A stretch of DNA of 64,000 nt from Candidatus Bathyarchaeota archaeon (GTDB lineage Archaea; Thermoproteota; Bathyarchaeia; 40CM-2-53-6). The notes beneath the pieces are model-generated. The model searched no databases, had not been told where the DNA came from, and was given only the letters and a program-made list of their open reading frames with translations. The stretch lies in contig CAVSBL010000002.1 in assembly GCA_963726255.1 (NCBI GenBank), positions 992,001 through 1,056,000 on the forward strand, read 5' to 3'. The position numbers were made by a program, and so were the translations under genes. The stretch's first letter is position 1; each line of letters begins with the position of its first letter. Positions 20,490 through 30,445 of the stretch are shown here, in pieces.

Positions 20490-23167
20490 TCATATGTTCT
20501 CGGTTGTGGGCGCCATTTTCTCTCGCGCGACGGCCTGCGCTGCGACCAGGCGGGCCACTGGAACTCGGTAGGGTGAACAACTGACGTAGTCTAGGCCTAG
20601 TTCGTGACAGAACTCAACCGAACTTGGTTCGCCACCATGTTCACCGCATATCCCCACTTTGAGCTGTGGGTTGCTTTTCTTTCCCGCCTCGACAGCTAGC
20701 CGCATTAACTTACCAACGCCTCTCCTGTCAAGGACTTCAAACGGGTTGGAGTTCAGGATCTTCTTGTCGAAATAATCTTTGAAGAATTTTGCTTCAGCAT
20801 CGTCCCTGCTGAATGCAAAAGTTGCTTGGGTGAGGTCGTTTGTTCCAAAGGAGAAGAAATCAGCATAATGTGCGATCTCGTCCGCAGTTAAGGCGGCCCG
20901 AGGAACCTCTATCATCGTGCCGACCTTGAACTCTATTCTCAACCCCATTTTTTCCATGACTTTTGCGGCCACTGAGGTTATTTTTTGCGCAGGAAGCGAA
21001 TTTCGTTGGCTTCCCCTACAAGGGGGAGCATTATTTCTACTCGAACTCTGACGCCTTCGTTTTGCAGTTCGGTCGCGGCCTCAAAGATTGCGCGGGTTTG
21101 CATCTCATATATCTCAGGGTGGCTTATTGCCAGCCTACACCCTCTATGGCCGAGCATTGGGTTGTGTTCGGCCAGGGTTATCACTTTCCTGAGCATCCGT
21201 TCTTTCGATTCAAGCAAGTCCGCGCCACTGCCTGTCGCTTTCAAGGAAGCAACTTCAGCCGTCAATTCATCATACCTAGGTAGGAACTCATGGAGCGGCA
21301 GGTCCAGTAATCGAATGGTGACGGGCAGGTCCTGCATGTTACGGAAGATTTCTTTGAGGTCCTCCTTCTGCAACGGCCGCAGCTTCTCCAACGCTTGACC
21401 GCGCTCCTCGTCCGTTACGGACAGGATCATTTCTTGAACTATGGGAAGCCGGTCTTGAGCGTTGAACATCCGTTCAGTTCTACAAAGTCCGATTCCACCC
21501 GCGCCAAATTCCCTCGCTACCTTGGCCCCTTCGGGTGTGTCAGCGTTAGCTCGAACGCCGAGCCTACGAGCTTCATCAGCCCAGCCCAGCAATTGTTTTG
21601 CTTCAGCGCCCAACTTCGGATCAATTGTTGGAACAACACCCAGCAGCACATTTCCAGTGGTTCCGTCGATCGTGATAACGTCATTCTTCTTTACTGTAAC
21701 CTTGCGTGTGCTCATAGTATCGGTGCTAGGATCGATTTTGATCTGTTCGCAGCCAACGACGGCTGGTTTTCCCATCCCTCGGGCTACAACTGCCGCATGG
21801 GACGTCATACCTCCCCTGCTCGTGAGGACCCCCTTGGCAGCGATCATCCCGTGAATGTCCTCGGGGGTGGTCTCCTCTCTAACGAGGATAATTGCTTCTC
21901 CCGTCGACCCTAAAGAATGAGCTTCATCGGTATCGAAAATCACCCTCCCAGTCGCGGCGCCGGGTGACGCCGGTAGGCCGGTCGCTATCGGTTTAGCATT
22001 GAAGCTTGGATCAATCTGCTTGTGCACTAGCTGTTCTAGATGCGCGGGAAGAACTCGTAGCAATGCCTGCTCCTTCGAGAGAAAACCTTCCTCGACCATG
22101 TCGACTGCAATTCGGATGGCGGCTGAAGCAGTTCGCTTCCCCGACCGCGTTTGAAGGATGAACAGCTTTCCTTTTTCGACGGTAAATTCGATGTCTTGCA
22201 TGTCCTTGAAATGTTGTTCAAGCATCTTGCACATATCGAGCAACTGAGTGTAAACGAGGGGCATCTCGTCCTTTAGTTGAGCAATCGGTTTAGGCGTCCT
22301 GATTCCGGCTACGACATCTTCGCCCTGGGCGTTGATGAGGAACTCTCCGAACAGACGCGGTTCGCCAGTCGAAGGATTTCTTGTGAAACAGACGCCGGTG
22401 CCCGAATCCGGGCCCATGTTCCCGAACACCATCGTCTGAATGTTAACAGCCGTGCCCAGCGTTTCAGGAATCTTGTTCGCCTCACGATACACCACGGCCC
22501 TATGCCCGTTCCACGAACGGAAGACTGCCGCTACAGCCATCTGAAGTTGAGTTGCCGGATCGTCGGGGAAGTCCTGCCCCGTTTCCTTTCTGCTAAGACT
22601 CTTGAACTCTTGAACAAGAGACGCCAATGCCGTCGCATCGAGTTCAATGTCCGAACTCACGCCCAACTTCTCTTTGCGTTCGCGAATGATTGACTCGAAA
22701 GCATCTCCCCCAACACCAAGCACAACTTTCCCGAACATCTGAACGAAGCGTCTGTAGGCGTCGTACGCAAACCGTTCGTTATTCGTCTGCTGAATGAGAC
22801 CGATGACGGTCTTATCGTTCAACCCAAGGTTGAGCACCGTATCCATCATTCCGGGCATCGAGATTGGTGCACCGGACCGAACTGAAACCAGCAGCGGATT
22901 TGTAGCGTCCCCGAAGATTCGGCGCGTTTTCAATTCTAAGGTCTTCAGTTTCAGGCGGATTTCGTCTTCAAGGCCATCCGGGAACTTTGACCCATGTGAA
23001 CTATAGTAGTTGCAAGCCGCTGTTGTCACCGTTATGCCAGGAGGAATTGGCAGGCCGAGACCTGCCATCTCTGCAAGGTCTGCCCCTTTGCCTCCGAGCA
23101 GGCTCCGGAGCTTGGAACTCCCCTCCTCGAATAGGTAGACGTACAAACCGCTTCTCCCCACAAACAA
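20490..23167 (-). CDS. ppdK: Pyruvate, phosphate dikinase (frameshift in A-run near 20980)
   Basis: [50 protein letters not shown]. The two ORFs join if one A is added ([11 protein letters not shown]). Confidence 0.95.
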
Positions 23168-23350
23168 CTACCCGAAATGCAGCAGACTTACTGAAGAACT
23201 AGGATACGAAGGAATTGTGGTAATCTGGCTCGATTTGGACGCCACCTGTCAAAGTAAGTTGGCGTATTTACCGTACGTAGATATTACTTATTCCGAAGGT
23301 TTCCGCCGAGAAGTACTACCTTCCCAAGATATCAGGAGTGGAAATGTAAG

Positions 23351-25708
23351 ATGAGTGCCCTTCTACTTTGGTTCGACGAAATCAGTAAGCAAGATGTACC
23401 GCTCGTAGGCGGAAAGTCTGCAAGCCTGGGCGAAATGACATCAAAGACGAAAGTTCCAGTTCCGTATGGCTTCGCACTTACAGCCGATGCGTACAGGTTG
23501 TTCCTCGCAAAGAACGGGCTAGAATGTAAGATCGCAGATGCCCTGAAGGTCTTGACGGATTCAAACGACACGGTCACGCTCCAAAAGGTTGGTGCGGAAA
23601 TACGGAAAATGATTGAATCCGCGGTAATGCCGAAGGAACTCGAGCGAGTCATAGCAGATGGGTATGCGAAACTCAGTGAACGAGAGAAAGTCAAGAACCC
23701 GTTCGTCGCAATACGGAGTTCTGCGACTGCAGAAGACCTACCCGACGCAAGCTTCGCAGGTCAACAAGAAACATACCTCAACGTCACCGGAGTAAACAAC
23801 GTAATCCAGAGCGTAAAGGAGTGCTATGCGAGTCTTTTCACAGACCGCGCGATATTCTACAGAATCCAGAAAGGCTTCAACCATGTCGACGTAGCACTTT
23901 CCGCAATTGTGCAAATGATGTGCTATTCCGAGTCCAGCGGCGTTATCTTCACCATGGACCCAACAAACGGCGACGAGTCCCTGGTACTAATTGAGGCATC
24001 TTACGGATTAGGAGAGTACGTTGTGAAGGGCACCGTCACGCCCGACGACTATTATGTCGACAAGGCGAGCATGAAAATCATTCGAAAAGAGATACCCATG
24101 AAGACGATCATGCTTGTCCAGATCAAAGCCGGAGGAACTGAAGAGAAGAGAGTACCCAACGACCTCAAGGAGCGACAGGTAATCACTGACGATCAAGTAG
24201 TTGAACTGGCCAAGCATGCTATGACCATTGAACGACACTATGGCCATGCCATGGATATTGAATGGGGACTTGACACCCAGACCGGGAAACTCTTGATATT
24301 GCAAGCTAGACCTGAAACCGTTTGGTCCCTTAAGAAGAGCCCAATAAAGAAACCAACTCCTCTAGCCGGAGAGAAGAAGATCATTCTCAAAGGGCTGCCA
24401 TCATCTCCCGGCCTCGGATCGGGCAGAGCGCACGTAATCATGACATCGGACCACGTTAGCGAGTTTCAAAACGGCGAAGTCCTCATAACCGAAATGACTA
24501 CACCCGACTGGGTGCCGACAATGAAGAAAGCAAAAGCAATCGTCACAGACGCCGGTGGCATGACATGCCACGCCGCCATCGTCAGCCGCGAATTAGGAAT
24601 CCCATGCATAACAGGGACGAAAATCGGAACTACCACCATACACACAGGAGAAGAAGTTACAGTTGACGCAAAGATGGGCTTCGTCTACCAAGGAATAGTC
24701 CTAGAGATGCCTGAATCCGACACCAAACCTCAACCATCTGCAGATGGGTTGGCGGCTTTCAAGGATCCTACCGTAACTGGGACGAAGATCTTCGTCAACC
24801 TTGGCGAACCCGAGTTAGCCCACAGAATCTCACAGCTGCCAGTAGACGGCGTGGGCCTGCTACGGATGGAATTCATTGTAAGCGATCACGTAAAGAAACA
24901 TCCGATGATGCTTATCGAGCAGGGACACCCTGAAGAATTCGTGGACAAGCTATCCACAGGCCTTGAAACAATATGCAGAGCATTCTATCCGAGGCCGGTT
25001 GTTCTTCGCTTCAGCGACTTCAAAACGAACGAGTATGCAACACTCGAGGGTGGAGAAAAATACGAAGGCGGCATCAAAGAGGCGAACCCGCTTATCGGAT
25101 GGAGAGGGGCAAGCCGCTACACCGACCCGCGTTACCAACCAGCATTCAAACTCGAAATTGCAGCCATCAAGAAAGTCAGAAACGAATTGGGCATGCGAAA
25201 CCTTTGGTGCATGATCCCGTTCAACCGAACCGTAGACGAGTTTGTGAAAATCCGCGAGCTTCTCCGAAGCGAAGGGTTAGAACAATCGGAGGATTTCAAG
25301 CTCTGGATCATGGCCGAAATCCCCAGCAACATAATATTGGCAGATGAATTCTGCAAAGCTGGTGCGGACGGTTTCTCAATCGGTAGCAATGACCTGACGA
25401 TGCTAATACTAGGCGCGGACAGAGACAATGAGGTTTTGGCGCCACTCTTCGACGAAAGGAACCTTGCGGTCAAACGAGCAATCAAGGACCTTATCGACAC
25501 GGCCCACAGTTTCGGTAAGACCGTAAGTATCTGCGGCCAAGCGCCAAGTGTCTATCCTGAATTCGCGAAGTTTCTGGTTGAATCGGGTATAGATAGCATT
25601 TCAGTGAACCCGGATGTCATAGTCCACACGCGGAGACTGGTCGCACAAGTTGAACAGAGAGTCGTTCTAGACGCGGCGCGAAAACAATGTGCTGAAAAGA
25701 ACCGTTAG
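23351..25708 (+). CDS. ppsA: Phosphoenolpyruvate synthase
   Basis: VGGKSASLGEM, RSSATAEDLPDASFAGQQET, GGMTCHAAIVSRE, IGSNDL, ICGQAPS. Confidence 0.96.
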   Translation: MSALLLWFDEISKQDVPLVGGKSASLGEMTSKTKVPVPYGFALTADAYRLFLAKNGLECKIADALKVLTDSNDTVTLQKVGAEIRKMIESAVMPKELERVIADGYAKLSEREKVKNPFVAIRSSATAEDLPDASFAGQQETYLNVTGVNNVIQSVKECYASLFTDRAIFYRIQKGFNHVDVALSAIVQMMCYSESSGVIFTMDPTNGDESLVLIEASYGLGEYVVKGTVTPDDYYVDKASMKIIRKEIPMKTIMLVQIKAGGTEEKRVPNDLKERQVITDDQVVELAKHAMTIERHYGHAMDIEWGLDTQTGKLLILQARPETVWSLKKSPIKKPTPLAGEKKIILKGLPSSPGLGSGRAHVIMTSDHVSEFQNGEVLITEMTTPDWVPTMKKAKAIVTDAGGMTCHAAIVSRELGIPCITGTKIGTTTIHTGEEVTVDAKMGFVYQGIVLEMPESDTKPQPSADGLAAFKDPTVTGTKIFVNLGEPELAHRISQLPVDGVGLLRMEFIVSDHVKKHPMMLIEQGHPEEFVDKLSTGLETICRAFYPRPVVLRFSDFKTNEYATLEGGEKYEGGIKEANPLIGWRGASRYTDPRYQPAFKLEIAAIKKVRNELGMRNLWCMIPFNRTVDEFVKIRELLRSEGLEQSEDFKLWIMAEIPSNIILADEFCKAGADGFSIGSNDLTMLILGADRDNEVLAPLFDERNLAVKRAIKDLIDTAHSFGKTVSICGQAPSVYPEFAKFLVESGIDSISVNPDVIVHTRRLVAQVEQRVVLDAARKQCAEKNR

Positions 25709-25754
25709 CGCGTCAACCATCCCAAGAGGACTGGGGCTCTCACGGGCCTCTAGG

Positions 25755-25907
25755 TTAACTGTGATCCCACCACAGGTTGTGGCATCTAGCACACACGACC
25801 TGCGTGAACTCTTCAAACGCAGGCAAATACTCAGTCCGTATCTCCGAAGTGTTTCTCTGCCTCAGTGTTATTTGTCGACTCCCGCAAGCGGGACAAGCAC
25901 ACATCAT
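25755..25907 (-). CDS. Zn-ribbon microprotein (paralog 1)
   Basis: MMCACPACGSRQ...QVVCARCHNLWWDHS; two CxxC pairs; paralogous to 26133-26264. Confidence 0.7.
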   Translation of the reverse strand: MMCACPACGSRQITLRQRNTSEIRTEYLPAFEEFTQVVCARCHNLWWDHS

Positions 25908-25934
25908 GTTTATGGCCGTTAGCGCTAGAATAAC

Positions 25935-25964
25935 GTAATACAATTAAAGGATTTCTGGTAATAC
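25935..25964. promoter_or_regulatory. Operator-like element GTAATAC-N16-GTAATAC enclosing BRE/TATA of Zn-ribbon gene 1
   Basis: GTAATAC at 25935-25941 and 25958-25964; near-identical element at 26291-26320. Confidence 0.65.
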
Positions 25965-26132
25965 TTCTGCGCTGAAGAATCACTGGAGCAGTATGATAGG
26001 GACAGCCTTAGCTGAGTGAATGAAGGTAGAGAATGTTTCTGTCGCCTTCTGAAGAGGCGCATCCCTCTGACAGGCCGCGTACTCTCTCAAAATTGCAGCA
26101 TTCTTCGTCCTTGTAATCATATGAGAAATTTG

Positions 26133-26264
26133 CTACGGAGTTGTATATGGGTAGCTTTGGTCCCACCAAATGTTTACGCAGTTTGCGCATTTGATCTGGA
26201 CAGCCTCGCGAGCGTTGATGAACTCCATATCCCTACTTCCGCAAGCAGGGCAAGTGTCTGCCAA
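26133..26264 (-). CDS. Zn-ribbon microprotein (paralog 2), below ORF-track cutoff
   Basis: Manual translation MADTCPACGSRDMEFINAREAVQIKCANCVNIWWDQSYPYTTP; alternative GTG start at 26273. Confidence 0.7.
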   Translation of the reverse strand: MADTCPACGSRDMEFINAREAVQIKCANCVNIWWDQSYPYTTP

Positions 26265-26290
26265 CACTTCCACAAACCTGAACGTGGACC

Positions 26291-26320
26291 GTAATACAAT
26301 TAAGGGATATGGTGTATTAC
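26291..26320. promoter_or_regulatory. Inverted-repeat operator GTAATAC-N16-GTATTAC in divergent promoter
   Basis: Perfect 8-bp inverted repeat GTAATACA/TGTATTAC flanking an AT-rich core, 10 nt before the ATG at 26331. Confidence 0.7.
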
Positions 26321-26330
26321 TGACGTAGCC

Positions 26331-27209
26331 ATGAAGCGCCGTTATAGTATGACCTTGGACCCGTCCTTAATGCATAAGGTAGACTTGTTAGTCGATGGGA
26401 CGAGGTTCACCAACCGGTCGGAAACGGCTGAATTTCTCATGAAACTCGGGATAGAACAATTCCGACCCGAAAGAACGGCGTTGATCCTATGCGGCGGCCT
26501 TGAAACCAGAGTGAGGCCATTGTCCTTCTCTACACCCAAAGCTCTTCTACCGATAGGGTACCAAGCCTTGGTCGAGTACCAAATTGAATACCTGAAGCAC
26601 TACGAATTTGATAGAATAGTTCTGGCGATAGGCTACCTACAGGAACAGATCGTCCGCTACTTGGACGAACACCGCCTCGGAATACGCCTTCGCTTCAGCT
26701 TCGAGAAAGAACCCCTCGACACGGGAGGCGCCATAAAGAACGCTGAACAGATGATAAGCTCCGATTTCCTAACACTAAACGGCGACGTGATCTTTTCAGG
26801 ACTTGACCTTGACAAATTGATTTCCGCCCACAAGAAAGCCAACGCATTAGCCACCGTCGCATTGGCGAAGTCCAGGACGCCGACGAGGTTCGGGGCCGTG
26901 GAGCTCGATAGCGACAACAGAGTCGTTAGCTTCGTTGAGAAGCCACGAAAACAAACTGCCGGCGAGACGTGGGTAAACGCAGGCGTCTACGTAATTCGCC
27001 CTTCCATCTTCGCCAAGATCCCAAAGGGAAGACGGACTTCGCTCGAGTTGGATGTCTTCCCCAAGTTAATGCGGGAAGGAACAATCTTCGGATACAGACA
27101 TGAAGGATACTGGGCGGATGTTGGAACACCCGAGGACTACCTACGGGTTCAAAAAGACCTTCTCACTGGAGTCCTAAAGCCAATCACAGAAATGCCCGAG
27201 AATGCTTGA
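26331..27209 (+). CDS. Ribbon-helix-helix domain fused to sugar-phosphate nucleotidyltransferase domain
   Basis: MKRRYSMTLD..L..KVD.LV....FTNRSETAE (CopG/NikR-like RHH), then ALILCGGLETRVRPLS..TPKALLPI, EPLDTGGAI, LNGD, FVEKP, YWADVGTPEDY. Confidence 0.85.
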   Translation: MKRRYSMTLDPSLMHKVDLLVDGTRFTNRSETAEFLMKLGIEQFRPERTALILCGGLETRVRPLSFSTPKALLPIGYQALVEYQIEYLKHYEFDRIVLAIGYLQEQIVRYLDEHRLGIRLRFSFEKEPLDTGGAIKNAEQMISSDFLTLNGDVIFSGLDLDKLISAHKKANALATVALAKSRTPTRFGAVELDSDNRVVSFVEKPRKQTAGETWVNAGVYVIRPSIFAKIPKGRRTSLELDVFPKLMREGTIFGYRHEGYWADVGTPEDYLRVQKDLLTGVLKPITEMPENA

Positions 27210-27226
27210 CTTTGGATGGCTACGGG

Positions 27227-28372
27227 CTACGCCAAAGCCGGTATTCTTCGCTTAAGGTCCTTCAGAATTTCGGCTGTTTGTTTCGGCGACGTGTCGGCTG
27301 AAAGTTCCTGCTTGGCTTCCCCCTCACTGCTAATGCTCTCTGGAGCACTCTCCCCAACGAGCGCTTCGAACAACTTCTGCCAATCCCTTGGGACGGCTTT
27401 GGGAGGCACGTAATCAACTAGTACGGAGGCAACAGAAGTCCATGCCCTCGCAACGTTGGCTAGGTTGTAGCCGCCACCGCCGAAAACAACGAGGCGACTA
27501 TGAGCTACCTCATGCGCCAATTCATGAACAATCTTAGCGACCTCGCAGTAGGTCTTTGTAGTGAGTTGCAAGTGAGCTAGCAGGTCGTTTGCATGCGAGT
27601 CTGCCCCACATTGCAGCAGCAGAACCTGCGGCTTGTACTTCCTCACGGCTGCAGGAACAATTTCCCGAAACAGCTCCATGTATGGCTTGTCGCCGGTGAA
27701 CGGCGGTAATGGTATGTTAATCTTGATTCCGGAAGCTTTGCCTTCGCCAATCTCCTCAGTGGATCCAGTGCCAGGAAAAAGATAGTGGCCGTCTTCGTGG
27801 AAGTCAATATCCAAAACGCCAGCGTCTGAGTAGAACCCGTACATTACGCCGTCTCCATGATGCGCGTCCACGTCTAGGTAGAGGACCTTGTCCACTGCAT
27901 ACTTCTTCTTCAGATATGCAATTGAGACGGCGGGGTCGTTGAAGATGCAGAAACCGGACGCGCGACCTGGATGGGCATGGTGCAGTCCTCCAGAGAGGTT
28001 CATCGCATGTGCTACTTGACCTGACATGACTAAATCAACCGCAGCCAGAGACGCGCCTACACCGAGCGCAGATGCCTCAAAACAACCCTTGAAAGCGGGC
28101 GTATCTCCCATATCGAGAAATCCTTCGCCTGACCTACTGACCTTCTGTACTAGATCTATGTACTCTTCATCATGGAAGAGCGCAAGTTCATCGCGGCTGG
28201 CCACACGCGGTTCACTGACCTTCACGTTCGGCGAAGAAAGTAAGCTGACTGCCCTCATCAGCTCAAAGGTCAGTTTCAGCCTAGTTGGCTTGAGCGGGTG
28301 GGTCGGCCCGAAGTCGTACTGCTGAAACGCGTCGCTGTAAACGACGCCGAGGGTCTGGGTCAATGGGTGCAA
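27227..28372 (-). CDS. AcuC/histone deacetylase family protein
   Basis: HPLKPTR, GGLHHA...ASGFCIFND, DVDAHHGDG, GADSH..D.LA, GGGGY. Confidence 0.93.
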   Translation of the reverse strand: MHPLTQTLGVVYSDAFQQYDFGPTHPLKPTRLKLTFELMRAVSLLSSPNVKVSEPRVASRDELALFHDEEYIDLVQKVSRSGEGFLDMGDTPAFKGCFEASALGVGASLAAVDLVMSGQVAHAMNLSGGLHHAHPGRASGFCIFNDPAVSIAYLKKKYAVDKVLYLDVDAHHGDGVMYGFYSDAGVLDIDFHEDGHYLFPGTGSTEEIGEGKASGIKINIPLPPFTGDKPYMELFREIVPAAVRKYKPQVLLLQCGADSHANDLLAHLQLTTKTYCEVAKIVHELAHEVAHSRLVVFGGGGYNLANVARAWTSVASVLVDYVPPKAVPRDWQKLFEALVGESAPESISSEGEAKQELSADTSPKQTAEILKDLKRRIPALA

Positions 28373-28490
28373 CCTGCCGAGAAGCGGCTACGTTCATTGG
28401 GTGGGGCGTTTGTTATGCGTTTAGGTTATGGTTTTCAGTAGCCCAAACTTAAATAATCCATATGTAATAACCGCCACCTGGCGTATACGA

Positions 28491-28838
28491 ATGCTACACT
28501 CCCCCAGCACTCTGAAGATTTCTCTGACTGAGAAAGCTGCTGAGAAAGTCAAGGCAGCAATAGATAAGCAAGAAAAGAAGGATGTGGGCCTGCGCCTCTA
28601 TGTTTCGGGCGGAGGCTGCAGCGGGTTCCAATACGGTTTGGCTTTCGACAACCAGACCGACGGAGACCATGTTATCGAAGCTCACGGAGTCAAGCTTCTA
28701 GTCGACGAACAGAGCGCTCAGTACGTGGATGGCTCAGAAGTGGACTATGTTGAAACAGTCATGGGTGAAGGTTTCAGGGTGAACAACCCCAACGCAACCG
28801 AAACATGTGGTTGCGGCCACTCATTCAAACCCAAGTAG
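28491..28838 (+). CDS. A-type Fe-S carrier (ErpA/HesB/IscA)
   Basis: GGGCSGFQY and NPNATETCGCGHSF. Confidence 0.93.
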   Translation: MLHSPSTLKISLTEKAAEKVKAAIDKQEKKDVGLRLYVSGGGCSGFQYGLAFDNQTDGDHVIEAHGVKLLVDEQSAQYVDGSEVDYVETVMGEGFRVNNPNATETCGCGHSFKPK

Positions 28839-28906: not shown

Positions 28907-30445
28907 CTAGCACGGCTCGATTGTGGACGGCGGTTTCGAGGTTATCGCGTACGTCACCCAGGTAACTCCGGGTACCTCACCTGTGATTCGGCTGCTGAGT
29001 TCCTCGAGGACATCGGGCGTGATTCTTGCCCAGTCTGCGGTCATGCCGTCCAAGGATTTCACAATGCGAACGGTAACGATGTATCCTAACTGGCGCTGAT
29101 CGCCAAGAACTCCCACTGCCGTGTCATCCCCAACGATTGCGAACGCTTGCCAAACGGAGCCGTAAAGTCCGCGGCGGGTCAGGACATCCTCAACTATGGC
29201 GCTGGCTTCTCGGCATATGCGGAGTTTCTCGTTTGTTACCTCGCCGACAATACGAACCGCAAGACCAGGGCCTGGGAAAGGGTGTGCGCTTACTATGACG
29301 TTGGGTACGCCGAGTTCCTGAGCGATCTTGCGAACCTCATCCTTGTATAGGAACTTCAAGGGCTCAATAATTCTGAACTTCGACCATTCAGGGATCCCTC
29401 CCACATTGTGGTGCGTCTTTATTCGAGATGCTATGCTACCAGTCCCCGCACTTTCGATAACGTCTGGGTAGAGGGTTCCTTGAGCTAGCCAACGAAACGT
29501 TCCCGTCTTCGAACTCTCTTCGTCAAAGACTTTGATGAATTCTTCACCGATGATTTTCCGTTTTTGTTCAGGGTCGGTAACGCCGACAAGACGTTTTAGA
29601 AATCTTTCAGAAGCATCAACGTAACGCAGGTTTAGCTTAAGTTCATCCTTCAAAGCCTTCACAATCAGTTTCGCTTCATCCTTTCTCAAGAGGCCGTGAT
29701 TAACGAAGATGCAGGTTAACCGGTCTCCCACAGCCCGCTGCACGAGCACGGCTGTCGCAGTGGAGTCAACTCCACCGCTCACAGCGGACAAGACCTCATC
29801 ATTTCCAACTTCGGATCGAATTTGCTGCGTAGCGGTTTCAATTATCGACCGCGGGTTCCAGGTCTGCGAACACCCGCTTATTCCAACGGCGAAATTCCTT
29901 AAGATCTGTAGGCCGTTCTCCGTATGCGCAACCTCTGGATGAAACTGAACCCCGTAAAGCAGGCGAGAAGAATCACGTATAGCCGCGGTTTTGCAATTCT
30001 CGGAACTAGCAATCACCTCGAACCTGCCGGGGAGGGTTTCCGCGTAATCACCGTGGCTCATCCAAGAGACCATTGAGCCGGTAATTCCCTGAAATAGGTC
30101 AGAGCTGTCGGATATGTTCAACTGCGCCTTCCCATACTCCCGCCGTTTTGTCGCTTTGACGCGGCCACCCAGCATCTGAACCATTAATTGGAGGCCGTAG
30201 CAGATACCCAAGACGGGCAAGCCAAGCCGAAAGATTCCGGGGTCACATTTGGGAGCTCCTTCATCGTATACGCTGGCGGGGCCGCCGGAAAGAATCACGC
30301 CCTTCGCTTTCAGCTCTAGGAGTTCCTGTGGTTTTGCGGTATATGGCATCAGCTCTGAGTAGACTTCGCATTCCCTTATGCGGCGTGTTATGAGATGTGA
30401 GTACTGGCCTCCGAAGTCAAGAACGGCTATCAGTTCGTCGGGCAT
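28907..30445 (-). CDS. guaA: GMP synthase (glutamine-hydrolysing, single chain)
   Basis: LDFGGQY, GICYGLQ, QFHPEV, SGGVDS, IKTHHNVGG, HPFPGPGL, KPPSTIE. Confidence 0.97.
   Translation of the reverse strand: MPDELIAVLDFGGQYSHLITRRIRECEVYSELMPYTAKPQELLELKAKGVILSGGPASVYDEGAPKCDPGIFRLGLPVLGICYGLQLMVQMLGGRVKATKRREYGKAQLNISDSSDLFQGITGSMVSWMSHGDYAETLPGRFEVIASSENCKTAAIRDSSRLLYGVQFHPEVAHTENGLQILRNFAVGISGCSQTWNPRSIIETATQQIRSEVGNDEVLSAVSGGVDSTATAVLVQRAVGDRLTCIFVNHGLLRKDEAKLIVKALKDELKLNLRYVDASERFLKRLVGVTDPEQKRKIIGEEFIKVFDEESSKTGTFRWLAQGTLYPDVIESAGTGSIASRIKTHHNVGGIPEWSKFRIIEPLKFLYKDEVRKIAQELGVPNVIVSAHPFPGPGLAVRIVGEVTNEKLRICREASAIVEDVLTRRGLYGSVWQAFAIVGDDTAVGVLGDQRQLGYIVTVRIVKSLDGMTADWARITPDVLEELSSRITGEVPGVTWVTYAITSKPPSTIEPC

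Follow-up and report, generated by a model that had tools for sequence, protein, structure and literature searches.

Is the protein encoded at 26331..27209 of the DNA studied here an enzyme of sugar-nucleotide metabolism, or a transcription factor built from one? The stretch analyzed, hereafter the window, comprises 64,000 nucleotides of a Candidatus Bathyarchaeota archaeon (GenBank assembly GCA_963726255.1, contig CAVSBL010000002.1, positions 992,001 to 1,056,000), and coordinates without a further label refer to it. The gene in question (+ strand) encodes 292 residues, in which a NikR-type ribbon-helix-helix (RHH; residues 1-48) is followed by an NTP_transferase domain (residues 49-292). Divergent from it lie two genes for cysteine-rich microproteins, each preceded by the element GTAWTAC-N16-GTAWTAC (W, A or T). 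A first-pass annotation of the same letters had proposed that the fusion is a sugar-phosphate or nucleotide-sensing transcription factor, and the comparisons described below support that proposal. Based on them, we assign a probability of about 0.7 to the reading that the fusion is a NikR-like tetrameric one-component repressor, in which the enzyme-derived domain would sense a sugar phosphate or nucleotide sugar, and which would control its own gene, the microproteins and, in relatives, gluconeogenesis genes.

The initial Pfam scan found nothing in residues 1-49 of the fusion. The N-terminal 48 residues align without gaps to 22 other fusion N-termini at identities down to 32%, and a profile built from 14 N-termini matched E. 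coli NikR (PDB 1q5v) with an E-value of 5.2e-6 over residues 2-43, followed by P. horikoshii NikR (2bj1, E 0.0044) and then CopG (E 0.054). The R-x-S-x-T strand of the family profile, which reads R4-Y-S6-M-T8 in the window protein, aligns to R-V-T-I-T of NikR, and the N-R-S-h-A motif of the profile aligns to N-R-S-E-A. Distant relatives at 33-42% identity carry RHH_1 together with NTP_transferase; one of them, P0192, scores 22.7 bits on Pfam RHH_1 at a cut-off of 20.5, and several distant members reach or approach that cut-off. In the AF2 (AlphaFold2) model of the fusion (pLDDT 87), an extended segment at residues 1-10 is followed by helices at 11-20 and 29-43, the whole at pLDDT 76-89, which is the strand-helix-helix topology of an RHH in about 45 residues. 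Judged by the family profile and the modelled topology, the N-terminus is a NikR-type RHH, and the feature on which the first-pass annotation had made its proposal depend is upheld.

The remainder of the protein is a nucleotidyltransferase. Residues 50-278 match Pfam NTP_transferase (PF00483) with an E-value of 1.1e-42 over profile positions 2-243 of 245, so that both the annotated fusion and its signature loop, GGLETRV at residues 55-61, stand as described. The best PDB matches by phmmer were the GDP-mannose pyrophosphorylase (GMPP) structures 7whr and 7d72 (E ~1e-37), and Foldseek on the model gave 7x8j (E 2.9e-24, TMq 0.7) and HddC 5xhw (TMt 0.88); the 7d72 chains, GMPPA and GMPPB, were among the top matches of both searches. 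The domain is GDP-mannose-pyrophosphorylase/HddC-like without the C-terminal left-handed beta-helix domain, and the short enzymes HddC and MurU also resemble it in Foldseek. No NCBIfam equivalog matched the fusion at its cut-off, the best being mannose-1-phosphate guanylyltransferase with 192 bits against 440, and database names for its relatives are NDP-sugar pyrophosphorylase or mannose-1-phosphate guanylyltransferase. Five linker residues, of which E47 and R48 are invariant, connect the RHH with the first nucleotidyltransferase strand, and the signature loop starts just 6 residues past the last RHH helix. The C-terminal 240 residues have this fold in place of the ACT-like tetramerization domain with a His/Cys nickel site that defines the NikR family proper; the fusion would act like NikR yet falls outside its family.

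The twin elements reported by the first-pass annotation were both found. Operator O1 (26291..26320, no strand assigned) reads GTAATAC-AATTAAG-N9-GTATTAC, with half-sites at 26291-26297 and 26314-26320 and a TATA-like box at 26298-26304; it overlaps two core promoters, that of the fusion gene, whose ATG lies 10 nt past the site, and, in the opposite direction, that of microprotein B. Operator O2 (25935..25964, no strand assigned) reads GTAATAC-AATTAAA-N9-GTAATAC, with half-sites at 25935-25941 and 25958-25964 and a TATA-like box at 25942-25948, and lies 27 nt upstream of the ATG of microprotein A, within the promoter of that gene. Both copies contain CGTAATACAATTAA, and they flank the paralogous microprotein genes. 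The operators differ in that one is a direct and the other an inverted repeat, which is no discrepancy because each 7-bp half-site is palindromic about its central W. The half-sites are 23 bp apart from centre to centre (22 bp in families f2 and f6 of the same order). The pattern occurs twice in the window against 0.02 expected, with none of 100 shuffles reaching two, and these exact sites are the only two in the entire genome of 2,424,021 bases. Genome-wide there are 135 half-sites, and three pairs of them lie within 60 nt of each other, two at a spacing of 23. The only other close pair, GTATTAC-N14-GTATTAC with a spacing of 21, is outside the window at G000:C2:1197998-1198025.

Degenerate sites in the same genome were also considered. 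None of the 26 candidates with one or two mismatches and N15-17 was counted, and the five that were inspected were inside open reading frames (ORFs) or without the TATA-flanked layout. An Rfam scan of 25000-28000 gave no match, and a sigma-70 promoter and terminator scan of the region, which is not applicable to an archaeon, did no better than shuffles. The AT-box profile upstream of 1060 crude ORF starts across the genome showed a broad and weak enrichment from about -60 to -29, too blurred to give a promoter-to-start distance.

The comparison with relatives covered full-length orthologues from 20 of 23 same-genus genomes, including that of the window, and from five genomes of three other families of the order. 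The site is exact before 19 of the 20 same-genus orthologues and has one mismatch before the remaining one, and in all 20 it starts 38-40 nt before the ATG. When these 20 upstream sequences, all distinct, were compared, the first half-site with the TATA-like box (GTAATAC-AATTAA) was kept in 18-20 of them and the second GTA.TAC in every one, with T at its centre in 12 and A in 8, while the 9-bp spacer and both flanks of the site agreed in just 6-16. Within the half-sites, all positions other than the centre of the second one were kept in 19-20. Since GTA-W-TAC is a palindrome around W, an exchange of A and T at the centre would be tolerated by an RHH dimer with two-fold symmetry. O2 is retained in the four genomes with a tandem microprotein pair, despite diverged flanks. 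The putative operator is a phylogenetic footprint.

The scan for co-occurrence that the first-pass annotation had suggested also came out in its favour. In a set of 41 genomes, the N16 site and the fusion gene occur together in 22 and are both absent from 15, while three genomes have the fusion only and one has the site only; this last genome is 88% complete and its site lies at a contig edge. The reversed control pattern was present in one of the 41. In families f2 and f6 the sequence GTAATAT-N15-GTAWTAY takes the equivalent position before the fusion orthologues. In a sample of 201 genomes from the class, 16 had a close orthologue of the fusion, and all 16 belong to this order.

Both microproteins are encoded on the minus strand and have a Cys4 zinc ribbon. 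Microprotein A (25755..25907), of the long type, has 50 residues from an ATG at 25907, and microprotein B (26133..26273), of the short type, has 46 residues from GTG 26273 or 43 from TTG 26264, of which the TTG start fits better because of the spacing at other targets. They share CPACGSR...CxxCxN(L/I)WWD(H/Q)S, in agreement with the paralogy claimed for them, and C5, C8, C39, C42 and the WW pair are invariant in all ten microprotein sequences. The AF2 model of microprotein A (pLDDT 74) is a three-stranded ribbon with strands at 13-17, 34-39 and 45-49, so that the two CxxC knuckles and the three-stranded sheet of a zinc ribbon are both present. The ratio of nonsynonymous to synonymous substitution rates (dN/dS) is 0.06-0.12 for microprotein A at dS up to 0.95; for microprotein B it is 0.08-0.26 in diverged orthologue pairs and 0.41-0.50 in the two closest pairs, which have few changes. 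The microproteins are real genes under purifying selection.

Intact divergent copies stand before the fusion gene at 10 of the 20 same-genus loci, with two copies in four genomes and one in six. Remnants occupy the same place in three more genomes, two of them without the Cys ligands and one with four Cys but GW for WW, and one genome has an intact copy elsewhere without an operator within 200 nt. The microproteins did not reach a named Pfam family, the best being DUF7340 (23.2 bits, cut-off 27) and DUF7351 (19.3 bits, cut-off 31.2); sub-threshold similarity was seen to Brz (E 0.021) and to TFIIB/TFIIS ribbons (E 0.01-0.02). With the model of microprotein A, Foldseek gave no match at E <= 0.001, and the best non-significant matches were C-terminal ribbons of TFIIS/Rpb9 (E 0.04-1). 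A search of 5.8 billion proteins yielded only 8 relatives, and Atlas matches were to unnamed or generic zinc-ribbon clusters only.

In relatives, additional operator sites occur at loci unlinked to the fusion gene, mostly in one layout consisting of a half-site, N8-9, a TATA-like heptamer abutting the proximal half-site, a gap and the start codon. The gap is 24-30 nt for the 35-residue Cys4 and GAPDH-like genes and 34 nt for fructose-bisphosphate (FBP) aldolase/phosphatase. Longer or less certain gaps are 38-41 nt to the first Cys of a 39-residue peptide, 42 nt for an 88-residue protein, 48-49 nt for a protein of about 67 residues, and 102 nt on the TIM side of a shared site. Within the genus, the sites precede the 39-residue peptide with 10 Cys in three genomes, one further site being cut at a contig edge; the Cys-rich CxxCYNWWN protein of about 67 residues in two; the CxxC-rich 88-residue protein in one; and a 353-residue divergent type II GAPDH in three (L057:1555-2616 (+), L048 and L050). 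The GAPDH-like protein matches PDB 1cf2 with E 9e-13 and scores 89.6 bits on NF003251, under the cut-off of 185, and by tblastn the genome of the window itself has no homologue. The 39-residue peptide (L055:1352-1471 (-), L056 and L058) has about 25% Cys, a metallothionein-like composition, and no Pfam match. In the protein of about 67 residues (L043:1576-1779 (+) and L039) the second knuckle ends in CSNCYNWWN, which resembles the CxNCxN(I/L)WWD of the window microproteins, and it may be their distant paralogue.

Outside the genus, the targets in family f2 are 35-residue Cys4 proteins at four sites and one 65-residue CxxC protein; in two f2 genomes a site also lies in the intergenic region between divergent genes for FBP aldolase/phosphatase (559 bits, cut-off 520) and triose-phosphate isomerase (TIM; 299 bits, cut-off 132). 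When the same-genus microprotein family was aligned with the 35-residue f2 family by hhalign, the probability was 5% and the CPxC alone was aligned, so that common ancestry is unsupported. One N16 site in family f6 is flanked by a 67-residue zinc-ribbon ORF and an 88-residue ORF at distances of 43-90 nt, and its target is ambiguous. With these unlinked targets and the ppsA and pgk neighbourhoods described below taken together, gluconeogenesis and small Cys-rich proteins appear to be the themes of the regulon. As predicted from the sites, it reaches gluconeogenesis genes and several unrelated families of Cys-rich microproteins in relatives.

Whether the nucleotidyltransferase domain still works as an enzyme depends on its loop and its pocket. 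The window protein does not have the G-x-G-T-R loop that binds the nucleotide: the third Gly of GGxGTR is replaced by Glu in 120 of 120 close homologues, and the usually invariant Thr after it is T, S, P or A. In family f8 the loop reads GGLG(V/I)(N/K)L. The pocket shows a different picture. K70, D152, E203, K204 and D263 are invariant in the closer alignment, and in the wider one K70 and D263 are nearly invariant and the rest invariant; by the work on RmlA and GlmU, we take K70, D152, E203-K204 and D263 to be the residues that bind phosphate, metal and sugar phosphate. The invariance indicates that the pocket is under selection, while the nucleotide loop was rebuilt in this genus and again in f8. 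The remodelling of the loop to GGLE[TSPA]R makes a sensor likelier than a working enzyme, and we lean toward a ligand-binding sensor with reduced or altered catalysis in this genus.

From these comparisons we infer a mechanism in which the fusion very probably binds this operator and probably represses, rather than activates, its targets. The N-terminal RHH would dimerize, and two RHH dimers about 23 bp apart would be held by oligomerization of the nucleotidyltransferase-fold domain. Each dimer would read one palindromic GTA-W-TAC half-site, and the half-sites bracket the TATA-like box. In the orientation of the target, the TATA box and the transcription start would flank the proximal half-site, and the distal half-site would come just upstream of the position of the B recognition element (BRE); at O1, which serves both directions, one half-site would take each role. 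A tetramer on both half-sites would exclude TBP, TFB and RNA polymerase and thereby repress, and in the window genome its targets would be its own gene and the two divergent microprotein genes. A nucleotide sugar, sugar-1-phosphate or nucleoside triphosphate (NTP) in the enzyme-derived pocket would set the affinity for DNA; we give even odds to a sugar phosphate, nucleotide or nucleotide sugar being the signal. When the usual archaeal TATA-to-start distance is applied, the TATA-like box of O1, centred at 26301, predicts a start about 26 nt downstream at ~26327, 3-4 nt before the ATG, so that the fusion mRNA would be essentially leaderless, and the box of microprotein A, centred at 25945, would place its start near 25919, leaving a leader of about 11 nt.

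A more speculative version, which we regard as unlikely, goes beyond this. The fusion would be a pseudoenzyme switch that reads the pool of hexose phosphates and nucleotide sugars, and its most conserved targets in the order would be fast-evolving Cys4 microproteins that act post-translationally on gluconeogenic enzymes or on the transcription machinery. The former action is proposed because the microprotein genes lie between ppsA and the regulator, the latter because the ribbon is TFIIS/Rpb9-like. If true, Bathyarchaeia would have a two-layer control of carbon flux that runs through microproteins.

Several observations weigh against the fusion being a dedicated repressor of this kind. On its own, the N-terminus of the window protein reaches just 13.3 bits with Pfam RHH_1 (E 0.085), and phmmer with it against the PDB found no RHH structure, so the RHH call depends on the family profile and the structural model. 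That model has no DSSP beta-strand at residues 1-10 of the monomer, which is expected because an RHH strand pairs only in the dimer but is not positive evidence either. The orthologues in f2 and f6 keep a canonical GGLGTRL, and in the window fusion all catalytic residues other than those of the loop are intact, so that it may still be an active enzyme. The f8 orthologues have no detectable operator, and the N15 pattern with one mismatch is no more frequent there than the reversed control. Decay of the microprotein gene in some lineages (G001 and G007) shows that it is dispensable, and several genomes have the self-site only (for example G001, G007, G010 and G022), so the fusion protein may have a function of its own. 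The 41 genomes are kin, and the co-occurrence counts overstate the independent support. All of the evidence for a regulator comes from sequences and models.

Some of these observations would be explained if the fusion were a trigger enzyme that regulates itself, as PutA or BirA do, and that still has the making of a nucleotide sugar as its main task and feeds the level of its product back through the RHH, the microprotein promoters being passengers of a shared or duplicated control region. The invariant pocket residues across the order, the canonical loops of f2 and f6, the genomes with a self-site only and the identity of the best NCBIfam match all speak for it. We nevertheless consider it rather unlikely: the Glu in the loop of every close homologue, with the next position free to vary, and the NCBIfam score far under its cut-off do not suit a working enzyme, each genome has a separate canonical paralogue of about 370 residues, and the unlinked operators at the GAPDH-like gene, at FBP aldolase/phosphatase-TIM and at unrelated microproteins indicate a regulon beyond self-feedback. 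The sub-threshold similarity of the microproteins to Brz and TFIIB/TFIIS ribbons, along with the non-significant TFIIS/Rpb9 matches, would fit another factor reading the operator, for example the microproteins themselves as Brz-like DNA-binding regulators, with the fusion gene merely one target. This is improbable in view of the operator being kept at the 10 of 20 same-genus loci without an intact divergent microprotein, in two of which the Cys ligands are lost, and of the fusion gene being present in 22 of 23 site-bearing genomes. The geometry, with a pair of palindromic half-sites separated by 16 bp, is moreover that of a NikR-type RHH (PMC7055735).

The Cys-rich targets and the NikR-like head could also suggest a metal-responsive regulator, which we hold to be quite improbable, since the sensor domain is without the NikR metal site and other targets are gluconeogenic enzymes. 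That the shared motif has no regulatory meaning, being a leftover of tandem duplication, as the first-pass annotation itself had considered, or a generic core-promoter element, agrees with the shared CGTAATACAATTAA beside paralogous genes and the TATA-like box within the motif. It is now hardly credible, because the motif is present at unlinked promoters, in other families of the order and beside all 20 orthologues, most of them without a duplication. A generic element would be frequent rather than limited to two sites in 2.42 Mb, and the half-sites are conserved while the spacers drift. A toxin-antitoxin pair of RHH antitoxin and nucleotidyltransferase toxin was rejected on the grounds of the sugar-1-phosphate nucleotidyltransferase fold and the single polypeptide.

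The repressor that we favour lies in a neighbourhood which Pfam assignments confirm as first annotated, with ppsA/ppdK on one side and a deacetylase on the other. A gene for a ppsA-like PEP synthase, which in the window is at 23351..25708 (+) and matches Pfam PPDK_N, PEP-utilizers and PEP-utilizers_C, is the immediate upstream neighbour of the fusion gene or of the microproteins in most genomes of the genus; we regard it as syntenic context and make no claim of regulon membership for it. Beside it is a ppdK-like gene (20978-23167 as listed, although the ORF may start further upstream; -), and the two stand back to back (20978-25708), so that two enzymes interconverting PEP and pyruvate share one 180-bp divergent control region. 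On the other side, a gene of the histone-deacetylase family (27227-28372, -), matched by Pfam Hist_deacetyl with E 1.6e-90, runs toward the fusion gene, and only 17 nt lie between the stop codons. It is followed by genes for an IscA/HesB-type Fe-S_biosyn protein (28428-28838, +) and the GMP synthase guaA (28907-30445, -), which look like ordinary housekeeping genes. In family f8 the fusion orthologues follow pgk by 7-22 nt. In family f6 (L023:198-1454 (+) and L024) a homologue of LarA-like nickel-pincer-cofactor racemases, with 314 bits on NF052593 at a cut-off of 500, is encoded immediately before the fusion gene and in the same direction. One f2 orthologue (L066, G115:C372) lies in an 822-residue open frame with an altered N-terminal strand, and one f8 orthologue (L065, G069:C1) has an in-frame TAA; these odd frames could be due to fusion, frameshift or assembly error.

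Taken all together, a protein annotated as a sugar-nucleotide enzyme has features that point to a transcription factor with a defined operator. The prediction is one of very few made for a regulon at the sequence level in Bathyarchaeia, an abundant uncultured lineage of sediments, and it points to a possible coupling of gluconeogenesis to sugar-nucleotide status in these archaea. It also delivers a set of conserved, predicted co-regulated microproteins of 35-88 residues that were mostly missed by gene callers, and whose function is directly testable because they are predicted members of the regulon.

Among known systems, NikR is the closest in several respects. Its RHH, compared here in the E. 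coli (PDB 1q5v/2hzv) and P. horikoshii (2bj1) structures, is the closest solved relative of the fusion N-terminus. The NikR homotetramer carries a pair of RHH domains at each of its ends and its operator is GTATGA-N16-TCATAC (PMC7055735), so that in both systems two half-sites are separated by 16 bp. The one-component logic, in which a sensor domain sets DNA affinity, would be shared as well. In contrast with NikR, whose C-terminus is an ACT-like nickel-binding tetramerization domain and whose signal is a metal, the fusion has an NTP_transferase fold, its operator half-sites are each palindromic, and its likely signal is a sugar or nucleotide metabolite.

DNA-binding enzymes are well known, including PutA, an RHH fused to proline-catabolic enzyme domains, and BirA and NadR, which use winged-helix or HTH domains and of which NadR has nucleotidyltransferase activity. 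The fusion resembles them in placing a DNA-binding domain on an enzyme fold whose ligand state would govern repression of its own gene, and would add to the cases in which an RHH repressor has taken a metabolic enzyme fold as its sensor; it differs in enzyme fold and pathway, and in a remodelled loop with which the domain may no longer be an enzyme. For a sensor of this fold family, GMPPA offers a precedent, being the non-catalytic paralogue and GDP-mannose sensor in the human GMPPA/GMPPB complex (PDB 7d72). GMPPA, however, regulates an enzyme partner and not DNA, keeps its C-terminal beta-helix domain and is without an RHH.

Archaeal precedents for the physiology are the TrmB-family regulators of Thermococcales (TrmBL1/Tgr), one-component proteins that bind core promoters and control glycolytic and gluconeogenic genes by sugar status. 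We know of no microprotein targets for them, and they are unrelated to the fusion in family, with a winged helix and a sugar-binding domain, and in operator. Our literature search, whose coverage excludes most subscription journals, found no description of an RHH-sugar-nucleotidyltransferase fusion regulator. Set beside these systems, what appears to be new is the Bathyarchaeia clade itself, the palindromic GTAWTAC half-site, the Glu-for-Gly loop, and a predicted regulon that joins microproteins with gluconeogenesis genes.

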